Shown here piece after piece: positions 28 through 24,840 of a stretch of DNA of 24,840 nt. The stretch comes from Minisyncoccia bacterium (lineage in GTDB: Bacteria > Patescibacteriota > Minisyncoccia > UBA6257 > 2-01-FULL-56-20), in assembly GCA_049968295.1 (NCBI GenBank), contig JBMFRD010000002.1, positions 1 to 24,840 of the forward strand, given 5' to 3'. The notes under the pieces were generated by a model. That model was not told where the DNA came from and did not search any database. It saw nothing but the letters and a program-made list of their open reading frames with translations. Position numbers and translations under genes: made by a program. Position 1 is the first letter of the stretch, and the number at the start of each line of letters is the position of its first letter.

Positions 28-529
28 GTAAGATTGCCGCGCCCTGCTTTGCGGTAGGGCTCGCAATGACAAAGGACTTAACACTAAGGTAAGATTGCCA
101 CGGTCAGACTTCGTCTGACCTCGCAATGACTATCCTTTTTGTCATCGCGAGCCCCAACGAAGTTGGGGCGTGGCGATGTTACAATAGTGTTATTTTATAA
201 AAAATTGTCTTACTATCTTATCTCGACGGCCGTCGAGATAAGATAGTAAACTATTAATAATATTTTTAGATTATAATAAAATGTTTTTTTATAAAATAAT
301 TAACACTAATGTAAGATTACTTTGCCCCGATGTCTCGGGGCCCGCAATGACAGGTGGGATTGTAAGATTGCTTCGTCGTTCGCCCCGATACTTCGGGGCT
401 CACTCCTCGCAATGACGGATGTGGTTGCAAGATTGCCACGCCGCGAAGTTAACCCAAAACCCAACTTGATTGTGGTTTTGGGCTCGCAATGACGGATAAA
501 TATTGTAAGATTGCTTTGCTCCGATACTT
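28..529. repeat. REP/BIME-like mosaic of 7 palindromic units (consensus G(T/C)AAGATTGC-variable hairpin-TCGCAATGAC)
   Basis: Units at 28-70, 89-130, 311-351, 362-416, 427-493 (+), 141-182 (inverted) and a 5' partial at 505-529. Internal stems: GGTCAGAC-ttc-GTCTGACC (102-120), GCCCCAAC-gaa-GTTGGGGC (151-169), GCCCCGA-N4-TCGGGGC (324-341, 382-399). The opposite strand of several units reads CGTCATTGCGAG, resembling CGTC-tagged REPs. Confidence 0.9.
210..249. repeat. Perfect 40-bp palindrome with no loop
   Basis: TTACTATCTTATCTCGACGG|CCGTCGAGATAAGATAGTAA; all 20 pairs checked by hand, centre between 229 and 230. Confidence 0.95.
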
Positions 530-617
530 GAGAGTTTGTAATAATAGATGAGTGATTGTATATTACTTAGACGAGATTACAATGATTTGAGGCTGGAAAT
601 TTAATTAATTTTTTGCT

Positions 618-5232: not shown

Positions 5233-5748
5233 ATGAAAAAAATATTATTTATATTTTTAATTTTACAGATATTTAATTTTTTAATGGTTAAATTTGCTTT
5301 AGCTGAAGCAAAATTTCCTTATTGGGGCCCAATAATGAGTTGCAATACTTCATCTACTGATACTTCAGTTGGAGTGACAGATCCTTCAAAAAAAGCTAAT
5401 TTAGGAAGATATGCTGATCCCTGTAGTAGTTTATGCGATTTAATTGCTACTGGCCAAAATGCAATTTATCTTGGTATAACTTTAGCTTTATTTGTTTTAG
5501 CGCCAATTTTTTTTGTAGTTGGTGGGTTTTTGATGATTATTTCGCGCGGCAATCCTCAAAATCTTCAAAAAGGAAAAGATATTTTTAAAAATACAGTTTG
5601 GGGAGTTGTGATTGTGCTTATGGCTTTTGTTATTATAAACACTTTTTTTGTTATTTTAGCGCCAAAACTTGGGAGTAAATCATATAGTTGGTCAAACATT
5701 CAATGCCCGGCTAATTTGCCCGGAAAAGTGGAGTGGGGGAATTTTTAA
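5233..5748 (+). CDS. CPR pilin (TrbC/VirB2-like, T4SS_pilin type)
   Basis: Signal peptide ending ALA-EA; CSSLCDL, then two hydrophobic helices separated by SRGNPQNLQKGKD; Cys near the C-terminus. Confidence 0.8.
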   Translation: MKKILFIFLILQIFNFLMVKFALAEAKFPYWGPIMSCNTSSTDTSVGVTDPSKKANLGRYADPCSSLCDLIATGQNAIYLGITLALFVLAPIFFVVGGFLMIISRGNPQNLQKGKDIFKNTVWGVVIVLMAFVIINTFFVILAPKLGSKSYSWSNIQCPANLPGKVEWGNF

Positions 5749-5809
5749 AATTAATAAACATAAAAAATTTTTTATTATTTTTCTAATATTTTAAAATTAA
5801 AATAAATTA

Positions 5810-7339
5810 ATGAATAAAAAAACCGTAGTTTTAGTAATTTTAGACGGATTAGGCATTGGTCTAGAAAGAGAAACTAATCCTTTTTATGCTGCTCGGCCTC
5901 AAAATTTAATTGAATTAGGGAAAAATTATCCTTTAACTAGTTTGTCTGCTTCTGGAATTGCGGTAGGATTGCCTTGGGGCGAAGAGGGAAATTGCGAAAC
6001 CGGACATTTAATTTTAGGCGCTGGAAAAATTTTTTATCAAAATTATCCTTTAATTACTATGGCAATTAAAGATGGTTCTTTTTTTAAAAATGAAAAATTA
6101 AATCAGGCCTTTGATTTTGTAAAACAAAATAATTCTAAAATAAATTTTGTTGGGCTTTTAAGCAGCGGCATTTCAGAATCAGCTTTAGAGCATATCGAGG
6201 CTTTAGTAAAATTAGCTGAAGAAAAAAATGTTAATTATGTATTTCATTTTTTTGCTGATGGCGAAGATAGTCCGCCGCGGTCTTTTTTAAATCTTTTAAA
6301 AAATTTTTCTAAAGATAAATTAGGTTCAGTTATTGGCCGTTATTATGCTTTAGACCATAAAAATAATTTAAATTTAGTTAAAAGAGCTTATGATTGTTTG
6401 GTTGGGCAGATTCAAGAAAATCCTAATTTTGAAGCAGTAATTGAAAATGCTTATAGCAGGGGGACAAATGATAATTTGCTTCCTCCAATTTTAATTGATA
6501 AAAATAAAGCTATTAATGACAATGATGCAGTTTTGTTTTTTAATTTTCGGGAAGATAATATGCGAGCTTTAGTTGAAGTCTTTGCTGATCCAAATTATCA
6601 AAAATTTGAATCTAAAAGAATTAATAATCTTTTTGTAATTACAATGGTTCAATATTCTAATCGATTTAACTTGCCAGTTGTTTTTGAGCCGCAAGTAATA
6701 AATAAGCCTCTTTCTTTGGTTTTATCAGAAAATAATAAAATGCAATTTAAAATTTCAGAAAGTTCAAAATATCCTTTAATTACCTTGTTTTTTAATGGTT
6801 TTCATGAAGCGCCTTATGAAAATGAATTTCGAGTTTCTATTCCTTCAAATTTTGAAATTAGTCCAGTTGATCATCCGGAGCTTATGGCTGGGCAAATCAC
6901 AGACAGAGCCATTGAAGCAATTAATGATCAATCTTTTGATTTTATTTTAATTAATTATGCTAATTTAGATATTGTGGGTCATACTGGTAATTTCGACGCC
7001 GCCATAAAAGCAGTTCAGTTTATAGATAACGAAATTGGAAGATTGGTTCGAGTTGGTTTAAATAATGACGTTATTTTTTTAATAACTTCTGATCATGGCA
7101 AAATTGAACAACTGATAAATTTAGAAACTGGCGAGCCGGATGTAGAACATACTAAAAATCCAGTGCCGCTTTATTTAATTGGAAAAAAATTTATTAGGCA
7201 TAAATTTCCAAATTGGAATAATATTGCTAATGAAACCTTAGGTCTTTTAGCTGATGTGAGTCCCACGATTTTAGATTTGTTAGATATTGAAAAACCTGAA
7301 GAAATGACTGGTCGAAGCTTGCTTAATGATTTATTTTAA
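5810..7339 (+). CDS. gpmI: 2,3-bisphosphoglycerate-independent phosphoglycerate mutase homolog with a deviant active site (Ser62->Cys)
   Basis: VVLVILDG, GLPWGEEGNCETGH, GRYYALD, FNFREDN, NYANLDIVGHTG, TSDHG, HTKNPVP. The fold is clear; mutase activity is uncertain. Confidence 0.85.
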   Translation: MNKKTVVLVILDGLGIGLERETNPFYAARPQNLIELGKNYPLTSLSASGIAVGLPWGEEGNCETGHLILGAGKIFYQNYPLITMAIKDGSFFKNEKLNQAFDFVKQNNSKINFVGLLSSGISESALEHIEALVKLAEEKNVNYVFHFFADGEDSPPRSFLNLLKNFSKDKLGSVIGRYYALDHKNNLNLVKRAYDCLVGQIQENPNFEAVIENAYSRGTNDNLLPPILIDKNKAINDNDAVLFFNFREDNMRALVEVFADPNYQKFESKRINNLFVITMVQYSNRFNLPVVFEPQVINKPLSLVLSENNKMQFKISESSKYPLITLFFNGFHEAPYENEFRVSIPSNFEISPVDHPELMAGQITDRAIEAINDQSFDFILINYANLDIVGHTGNFDAAIKAVQFIDNEIGRLVRVGLNNDVIFLITSDHGKIEQLINLETGEPDVEHTKNPVPLYLIGKKFIRHKFPNWNNIANETLGLLADVSPTILDLLDIEKPEEMTGRSLLNDLF

Positions 7340-24438: not shown

Positions 24439-24473
24439 AGAATCTAGAAAATAGAATCTAGAATTTAGAATTT
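24439..24473. repeat. Tandem heptamer array (AGAATCT-type x5)
   Basis: AGAATCT AGAAAAT AGAATCT AGAATTT AGAATTT. Confidence 0.8.
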
Positions 24474-24528
24474 TACGATATCTTTATTTTTTATTTAATA
24501 AAGTTATTTAAAATTTTCATCATTATCT

Positions 24529-24563
24529 TTTGCCTTTTGCACTTTGCGTTTTTCGTTTTTAAT
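24529..24563. repeat. Tandem heptamer array (TTTGCNT-type x5)
   Basis: TTTGCCT TTTGCAC TTTGCGT TTTTCGT TTTTAAT. Confidence 0.7.
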
Positions 24564-24572
24564 ACGCCATTA

Positions 24573-24739
24573 TCAAATCGCCACAGTTTATCTCGACTCT
24601 TCGGGGACCAGCTAACTTTGGTCTCGCAATGACGGAAAAAGAATTGTCATTGCGACCCCGAAACATCGGGCAAAGCAATCTTGCTACCTCATCCGTCATT
24701 GCGAGAAGTGAGTGTAAACGAACGGCGAAGCAATTTTAC
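24573..24739. repeat. Second cluster of the same REP-like family: one direct unit (about 24573-24633) and two inverted units (24646-24684, 24695-24739)
   Basis: TCGCAATGAC at 24624-24633; GTCATTGCGA at 24646-24655 and 24695-24704; inverted units end in GCAATCTTGC and GCAATTTTAC. Confidence 0.9.
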
Positions 24740-24753
24740 ATTCGCTTTGTTCA

Positions 24754-24797
24754 AATTCAAAATGTAAAAAATGCAAAACTAAAAATGCAAAATGCAA
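24754..24797. repeat. Tandem heptamer array (AATGCAA-type, about 6 units)
   Basis: AATTCAA AATGTAA aa AATGCAA AACTAAA AATGCAA AATGCAA. Confidence 0.75.
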
Positions 24798-24840
24798 AAG
24801 AAATATTTTGAATTTTTAATTTAAATATAGATTCTAGATT

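Follow-up and report, generated by a model that had tools for sequence, protein, structure and literature searches.

Both ends of the stretch analysed here (the window, 24,840 nt, which is the entire contig C2) carry a cluster of palindromic repeat units. The host genome, G000, is a draft of a Minisyncoccota-like bacterium of the candidate phyla radiation (CPR), with about 620 genes and an estimated completeness of 95%. The units probably represent a lineage-specific branch of the pan-bacterial class of CGTC-tagged repetitive extragenic palindromes (REPs), together with the Neisseria NTS/dRS3 repeats and the Ssn-related motifs (SRM), and an Ssn-like nuclease is their probable partner. The element class and the partner enzyme have both been described already; the new part is thus a lineage-specific member of the class and not a new kind of element.

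Anatomy, pairing and folding of the units

Read on its CGTC strand, a unit consists of (C/T)GTC, a 5-bp foot (ATTGC or ATCGC), a variable inner hairpin and the matching foot (GCAAT or GCGAT), followed on the 3' side by a C and a lineage-specific tail, here TTAC and then a leader. Units with ATTGC...GCAAT ends are called A-type and those with ATCGC...GCGAT ends B-type. On the + strand the general layout of the A-type is GTAAGATTGC, a variable hairpin and (T/C)CGCAATGAC, and the base 3' of ..GCAATGAC is g or a, which gives CGTC or TGTC on the other strand.

An earlier reading made from the letters alone (the sequence-only reading) had described seven units at 28-529 that share both ends. This region holds six complete units and a truncated one: five are typical and follow the A-type layout, one is an inverted variant with ATCGC/GCGAT ends, and the last has a head without a tail. 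The strict pattern AAGATTGC-N10-40-CGCAATGAC gave four matches in the window and none in 100 shuffles. The observation is genuine and far exceeds chance expectation. The five GC-rich stems named in that reading are all present and all fold, with DNA-fold z-scores of -1.3 to -5.6 for the window units. Units 2 and 3 do meet tail to tail, at 121-150, and the leaders that units have in common are present at 78-90 and 300-312, with a variant at 17-29. The features of the window are as follows.

17-29: variant leader of unit 1
28..70, + strand: unit 1, A-type; GTAAGATTGC, a GCCCTGC/GTAGGGC stem with one G.T pair, then TCGCAATGAC
78-90: leader of unit 2, TTAACACTAAGGT
89..130, + strand: unit 2, A-type; 8-bp stem GGTCAGAC/GTCTGACC; z-scores -4.0 and -4.2
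131..140: 10-nt spacer in the head-to-head A/B dimer at 89-184, CGTC ends facing each other
141..184, - strand: unit 3, B-type, inverted; the + strand reads GTCATCGCGAG..GGCGATGTTAC; stem GCCCCAAC/GTTGGGGC; z-score -5.6
210..249: perfect 40-bp palindrome; AT-rich spacer; not a CGTC unit
311..351, + strand: unit 4, A-type; degenerate head AAGATTAC; CCCCGA-N4-TCGGGG hairpin; leader at 300-312
362..416, + strand: unit 5, A-type; CCCCGA hairpin nested in GA-rich arms, which read GAGGAGTGAG..GAACGACGAA on the CGTC strand
427..493, + strand: unit 6, A-type; 'CCCAAAACC..GGTTTTGGG' module, present at about 12 G000 loci
505..533, + strand: truncated unit 7; head GTAAGATTGCTTTGCTCCGAT, without tail
24574..24633, + strand: second cluster, degenerate 60-nt B-like unit with 3' end TCGCAATGAC
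24646..24684, - strand: second cluster, A-type unit, head-to-head with the unit at 24574..24633 across a 12-nt spacer
24695..24739, - strand: second cluster, A-type unit; GA-type interior, without a Watson-Crick hairpin

The interiors had been taken to be unrelated to one another. They are indeed variable, in units that span 27-88 nt across the G000 family, but they are drawn from a small set of modules that recur at other G000 loci (CCCCGA-N4-TCGGGG, CCCAAAACC..GGTTTTGGG, GCC-TTC-GGC and GA-rich arms). A permissive Rfam search of both strands returned chance matches only, far under the family thresholds. A CRISPR-like reading, in which tail, linker and head would form the repeat and the hairpins the spacers, is ruled out by the 'spacers' being always palindromic and by the variation of the linkers.

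The units extend far beyond the copies in the window. The G000 assembly comprises 598,758 bp in 92 contigs, the shortest of 500 bp, and its 0.6 Mb and 28% GC agree with the CPR-type host that had been proposed. With one mismatch permitted per end, we found 74 candidate units, of which 64, grouped in about 41 clusters, are GC-rich in the interior (mean 55% GC); the window-type pattern gave 57 matches and a control pattern none. Apart from chance matches, all units are intergenic, mostly between co-directional genes. Of the 64, 38 are found no more than 300 nt from a contig end, and high-depth repeats are present at 39 of the 184 contig ends. The first of these counts is what speaks for an assembly artefact or for chimeric contig ends. 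However, many clusters lie in the interior of a contig between unique genes, the same units are also found in independent assemblies, single-contig genomes included, and repeats that break short-read assemblies are the expected causal direction, so that an artefact is barely conceivable. Since repeats break the assembly and many units lie at contig ends, the true number of units is probably higher. A contig-end overlap graph contained too few overlaps for linking the start of the window to a neighbour.

Both the ends and the interiors of the units covary. Among the G000 units, 34 have ATTGC/GCAAT ends, 20 have ATCGC/GCGAT ends and 3 are mixed (Fisher p 4e-12). Each class possibly stems from one founder, in which case the covariation of the ends amounts to about one compensatory event and not to 54; the same A/B pairing in unrelated genomes and metagenome contigs indicates that the pairing is old. 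For the interiors we used 17 distinct Watson-Crick-type units, selected for having at least 6 of the 7 basal pairs of the interior stem. In this set, 96.6% of the arm positions pair with their own partner versus 73.3 +/- 3.0% when arms are swapped, and none of 2000 permutations reached the observed value. Compensatory changes are also seen within modules (for example GCCCCAAC/GTTGGGGC versus GCCTTAAC/GTTAAGGC). Cases of G.T and A.C mismatches were too few for their asymmetry to be of use.

A-type and B-type units are joined in head-to-head pairs, with CGTC ends inward and a 10-12 nt spacer, at 89-184 of the window (52-nt inverted arms, 75% complementary) and at no fewer than 10 other G000 loci. 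This alternation of two unit types agrees with the proposed likeness to bacterial interspersed mosaic elements (BIMEs) and recalls their Y/Z alternation. The dimers are near-palindromes of 100-130 bp with inverted outer ends of about 25 nt, and they could therefore be taken for miniature inverted-repeat transposable elements (MITEs) of a DDE-type insertion sequence, with leader and head acting as terminal inverted repeats. We regard this as highly improbable. No target-site duplications were found around 19 single copies in another CPR genome (G285), which argues against DDE-type MITEs, and rve, DDE_Tnp_1, IS110 and TnpB genes were not found in G000. Moreover, single units are as common as dimers elsewhere, and the part that is conserved across phyla is the inner foot of the hairpin and not the outer end.

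In about one third of the units the interior is not a Watson-Crick palindrome. On the CGTC strand such interiors read as runs of the type GA-G-GA-GT-GA-GC, GAA loop, GC-GA-AC-GA-C-GA, in which G-C or A-T steps alternate with tandem 5'-GA/3'-AG pairs and a GNA triloop closes the arm. GCGAAGC, the core of many arms, is a known stable DNA mini-hairpin. The pyrimidine-rich complement is unable to form G.A pairs and the CGTC strand therefore folds better: under DNA parameters it is predicted to be the more stable strand for 45 units and the less stable one for 3 (p 9e-9), and RNA parameters give 49 and 10. These predictions point to a working form that is single-stranded and strand-specific, for which the tandem G.A pairs and GNA triloops would be the structural reason.

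Known repeat classes and distribution

CGTC-tagged REPs were defined by Di Nocera, De Gregorio & Rocco in 2013 as repeats with a CGTC tag (variants TGTC and CCTC), a stem that opens with two A-T pairs, a short tail, an arrangement mostly in head-to-head dimers and no dedicated transposase (PMC3733652). The resemblance to this class that had been pointed out for the window holds. Our units have in common with it the (C/T)GTC tag, a stem starting AT with two A-T pairs first, a short unpaired 3' tail that begins with C (here C-TTAC), a high copy number (at least 64 units in 0.6 Mb), an intergenic location, heterogeneous stems and loops, and head-to-head dimers (at least 11 A/B pairs with 10-12 nt spacing). 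They differ in the tail, which is CTTAC plus a 13-nt leader here and CCA there, and in the host, the CPR not being among the five phyla of the 2013 list. They also differ in the stem. CGTC-1 to CGTC-4 have 8-9 bp stems and 4-5 nt loops; compared by description, the units of G000 have instead a 5-bp foot, an internal loop or G.A steps and a variable inner hairpin, with longer, modular or nested interiors.

A second comparison is with the Neisseria NTS, an extension of dRS3, which is bound and cut by SsnA, a single-domain GIY-YIG protein of 94 aa (Chenal et al. 2025, PMC11893778). SsnA cuts only single-stranded DNA, and only the CGTC strand, a few bases upstream of the hairpin; the three bases before the palindrome (GTC) govern cleavage, while the C after it governs binding (PMC11893778). 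The NTS and our units have in common CGTC, a palindrome starting AT and then a C. The bases that are conserved here (GTC before the foot and C after it) are the critical bases of the NTS, and the strand of the NTS that is cut corresponds to the better-folding strand of our units. Two alternating unit types, fixed short linkers, mosaics and hairpins in single-stranded DNA are also features of enterobacterial REP/BIME and of Pseudomonas REPIN-RAYT systems; in those systems the tag is GTAG and the partner a Y1 HUH enzyme, and we found neither here.

The class had been thought to come mainly from Alphaproteobacteria, a view that is outdated. The cross-phylum pattern GTCATTGCGAG-N8-38-GAAGCAATC gave at least 120 matches in species-representative genomes. 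The matches listed include Alpha-, Gamma- and Deltaproteobacteria, Chloroflexi, Cyanobacteria, Bacteroidota, Patescibacteria, Planctomycetota, Zixibacteria, Ignavibacteriota, Armatimonadota, Omnitrophota, Spirochaetes, Helicobacter and others, and in them the base before GTC is C 75 times and T 66 times. Also among the matches listed are IMG/VR viral contigs for the same pattern and, for the window-type ends, metagenome contigs with an identical CTTAC tail and leader. In a sample of the phylum (400 genomes and G000), 112 of the 401 genomes have a match and about 40 carry 10 to 79, with reversed-pattern controls near zero. This extends the class to ultra-small CPR genomes, where 10 to 80 copies are present in roughly 10% of the species sampled. 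Judged by sequence, fixed ends around a variable hairpin are a general trait of a pan-bacterial class whose occurrence within families is patchy.

Among close relatives the window-type form is rare. In a set of 40 related genomes searched with window-type ends, one genome of the same order has three good matches, and none were found in the same-genus genome G001 (78% complete) or in 23 genomes of the same family. The proposed comparison of filled with empty orthologous sites could be made at the right junction of the window. The orthologous spacer of G001, upstream of the homologue of the open reading frame (ORF) at 618-1199, is about 100 nt long, AT-rich and without a unit; here it exceeds 590 nt, and homology to G001 resumes at window position 593. 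Two other loci were not comparable: the flanks of a cluster on C22 map to different contigs of G001, and a C17 locus matches in its distal segment only. Together these comparisons suggest that the family expanded after the split from this congener. The ongoing amplification proposed in the sequence-only reading is unsupported.

Candidate partner enzymes

The sequence-only reading named no partner for the class and spoke of the lack of a known dedicated transposase; this is outdated in so far as a partner enzyme was described in 2025, Ssn, a GIY-YIG nuclease of single-stranded DNA (PMC11893778). The small GIY-YIG ORFs of the CPR split into subfamilies, one of which is Ssn-like (alignment A2). 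Its members are single-domain proteins of 86-103 aa, with 50-67% identity between CPR families and a common signature; in size and in single-domain build they agree with the Ssn nucleases. Their profile scores are bimodal (at least 93 bits versus at most 75). We defined repeat-rich genomes as those with at least 8 units and compared 32 repeat-rich with 22 repeat-free CPR genomes. The Ssn-like gene is present in 27 of the former and 6 of the latter (p 4e-5; the genome counts include related genomes, so that this and the other p-values of the sample overstate independence). Contrasts within families were nine positive and none negative.

The gene is also physically associated with the units. We took one Ssn-like locus from each of 30 genomes. 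Units lie no more than 200 nt from the gene on both sides in 12 of these loci and on one side in 3, most commonly as inverted units around it. In G011, which belongs to the family of G000, the order is unit-unit-gene-unit-unit-unit. The metagenome loci L370 and L445 have the gene between units of the window tail type, and in L370 leader, head and tail are exactly as in the window. In the cross-phylum set, L051 (a Planctomycetota metagenome-assembled genome) and L125 have the gene flanked by units on both sides. These proportions resemble those published for Ssn, where 42% of ssnA homologues have motifs on both sides and the gene is present in 81% of genomes that have over 200 motifs (PMC11893778); the corresponding values in the CPR are 40% and, for repeat-rich genomes, 84%. 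The expectation of GIY-YIG genes next to the units is therefore borne out in relatives, but no such gene is present in the G000 assembly. At two loci (L542:1402-1779 of G011, and L549) the Ssn-like open frame extends upstream through a unit, and the first in-frame start is the ATG inside the GCAATGAC tail of that unit, so that units can supply start codons and short N-terminal extensions.

By analogy with Neisseria, a single-domain GIY-YIG nuclease of about 95 aa (Ssn-like) would bind the folded foot and would nick a few bases upstream of GTC, on the CGTC strand only and in single-stranded DNA only. In relatives the nuclease gene sits between inverted units much like a tiny insertion sequence. 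The units would spread to intergenic sites without target duplications, and local and segmental duplication would then enlarge the clusters into BIME-like mosaics. The anatomy, the covariation, the strand asymmetry, the distribution and the association of gene and repeats in the CPR are shown; we infer that the CPR gene is a true Ssn, that its product cleaves the units and that this or any other factor mobilises them. The mechanism of spread is unproven, both for this family and for the whole class.

Besides the relatedness of the genomes counted above, several points weigh against an Ssn-like partner. The effect of Ssn has been demonstrated on transformation only, and its link to mobilisation is without experiment, Neisseria included (PMC11893778). 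The published SRM string (HGTCWY-N0-2-YYVSBRH-N0-5-WNVSBRG-N0-2-RNCYNB) matched none of the 64 units and nothing in the whole of G000. This string matches the Neisseria NTS and not the cross-phylum ATTGCGAG consensus; the ATTGCGAG/ATCGCGAG branch lies outside it, and because the string misses this widespread branch the published motif counts are probably underestimates. Five other repeat-rich genomes are without the Ssn-like gene, in line with the 19% published for Ssn, and six repeat-free genomes have it. In Pfam the Ssn-like CPR protein is recognised as generic GIY-YIG only, NCBIfam is without a specific model for cd10448 membership, and the only match in the PDB is the UvrC N-terminal domain (E 0.004). 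Finally, unlike in the case of the NTS and SRM, the G000 assembly is without an ssn-type gene, its best profile match scoring 50 bits versus at least 93 for true members.

There are two possibilities for this last observation. A gene of about 280 bp that is normally bracketed by assembly-breaking repeats could well disappear from an assembly whose shortest contig is 500 bp, and it is therefore plausible that the Ssn-like gene was lost in an unassembled, repeat-flanked gap. Alternatively, G000 may be a true orphan in which at least 60 units were kept or expanded without any Ssn gene. With its roughly 620 genes, at least 60 units and no nuclease or transposase detected (six transposase-type families searched), this genome is a compact test case that could show whether the repeats need Ssn for persistence or for spread.

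G000 does encode two small GIY-YIG ORFs, which are ruled out as the partner because they belong to a non-Ssn subfamily and do not lie beside units. The first, an 86-aa ORF at C6:15579-16036, lies within an exactly duplicated 104-nt segment containing the 5' half of a tRNA gene, and the locus looks like an insertion into the tRNA gene. The second, at C19:1900-2220, is interrupted by a stop and lies in an insertion of the 16S rRNA gene; rRNA insertions are a typical CPR feature.

When searched for these families, G000 yielded no Y1_Tnp, TnpB, reverse transcriptase, rve, DDE_Tnp_1 or IS110; the genome has one Xer-like tyrosine recombinase. The RAYT/IS200 partner that the sequence-only reading considered is unsupported. 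In a REPIN/RAYT-type system the units would be moved in trans by an IS200-like Y1 HUH transposase, as is thought for GTAG REPs. A hairpin with a 5' tetranucleotide tag, inverted pairs and missing target duplications do resemble REP/REPIN, and Y1_Tnp occurs slightly more often in CPR genomes that are rich in repeats (19 of 32) than in repeat-free ones (7 of 22; p 0.06). However, the sole weak Y1_Tnp match in G000 is a Jag/R3H protein, 13 other repeat-rich genomes are without Y1_Tnp, one of them with 79 copies of the repeat, and contrasts within families are divided 5 to 4. No unit lies within 1.5 kb of any of the 10 best Y1 loci, and the same was reported by Di Nocera et al. 2013 (PMC3733652). 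We therefore consider a Y1 transposase a very unlikely mobiliser. Large serine recombinases were another candidate: subtracting the gene content of the unit-free genome G181 from that of its congener G090 (17 units), and intersecting the result with G000 and G285, left 21 genes, four of which were of this type. They were rejected, being ubiquitous (23 of 32 repeat-rich and 18 of 22 repeat-free CPR genomes).

As hairpins of high GC content in an AT-rich genome, the units could also serve the host without any dedicated enzyme, as stabilisers of mRNA 3' ends, terminators or protein-binding sites that spread solely by recombination and duplication. Their strictly intergenic position, mostly between co-directional genes, is in keeping with such a role, as are the blocks of 100-290 nt common to several clusters, the tandem duplication of blocks and the G000 assembly being without any transposase of the six families. 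On the other hand, the orientation of single units is not biased with respect to transcription (16 are sense and 13 antisense; at viral loci the counts are 13 and 10), no T-runs follow the units, and within 1-700 nothing but the unrelated 40-bp palindrome is terminator-like. SsnA, for its part, does not bind RNA (PMC11893778). The near-identical ends across phyla and the unit-flanked nuclease gene argue for a specific trans-acting factor. A purely host-serving origin is thus unlikely, though the two explanations are not exclusive, and a host role would be compatible with a branch of the CGTC class served by an Ssn-like nuclease.

Mosaic structure and orientation of the clusters

The clusters of G000 are mosaics, in which blocks of 100-290 nt are common to several loci and tandem duplication of blocks is seen. 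The 40-bp palindrome at 210-249 of the window (TTACTATCTTATCTCGACGG and its complement) has 3-4 diverged copies elsewhere in G000, among them C17:2500-2555, C47:230-289 and C53:2064-2107; it is terminator-like on the - strand and forms a separate small repeat family within the mosaics. AT-rich heptamer arrays of the AATTCNT and TTTGCRT types lie next to many clusters (window 24439-24563 and 24754-24840; C8:17310-17385, C22:1960-2030 and C41:5280-5350), with a self-BLAST depth of 20-33, above that of the GC-rich units. The flanks of the three-unit cluster at C22:1652-2167 map to contigs C33 and C22 of G001, and the sequence runs on past the join on the G001:C33 side; this cluster may mark a synteny breakpoint. 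The multi-copy coding repeats of G000 are paralogues of surface proteins and not transposases.

In some genomes with extreme GC skew the orientation of the units follows the skew. In G285, a single-contig CPR genome of 1.09 Mb, 19 units have the CGTC strand on the C-rich strand and 0 have it on the other. The contig (G285:C1, loci L162-L216) has negative GC skew over its full length, with a cumulative curve that falls monotonically to -14.7 and with mixed gene orientation; monotonic GC skew has been reported for some Microgenomates (Kadnikov 2020, PMC7143001). In the strongly skewed part of G090 the count is 8 to 2 in the same direction. The congeneric G090 and G181 are skewed over about half of the chromosome and near zero over the rest (G090:C1 200-520 kb and G181:C1 20-300 kb, loci L474-L540, |GC skew| 0.2-0.26); G090 has 4 Ssn-like genes, and G181 has 1.

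Among the matches listed for IMG/VR, CGTC lies on the C-rich strand 72 times versus 13, and 33 times versus 1 where |skew| is at least 0.15. Orientation showed no bias relative to local GC skew in the cross-phylum genome set or in the metagenome set, again among the matches listed. Hairpins of the CGTC/Ssn type may be polar relative to the strand asymmetry of the chromosome: placement on the C-rich strand under extreme skew would fit the CGTC strand, which folds and would be cut, being kept away from the single-stranded DNA exposed at replication forks, perhaps to avoid self-cleavage or hairpin-induced deletion. This tentative idea is not established, and we hold it to be rather unlikely. No Ssn-like gene is encoded at the IMG/VR loci L217-L336, where many of the unit-bearing contigs labelled as viral have 47-65% GC and a GC skew of up to 0.45.

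The metagenome contig Ga0272448_1001960 (L376) carries six units in the same order (A A A A B A) twice, at 5563-5872 and 6284-6617, about 720 bp apart, and this duplication indicates that clusters grow by segmental duplication.

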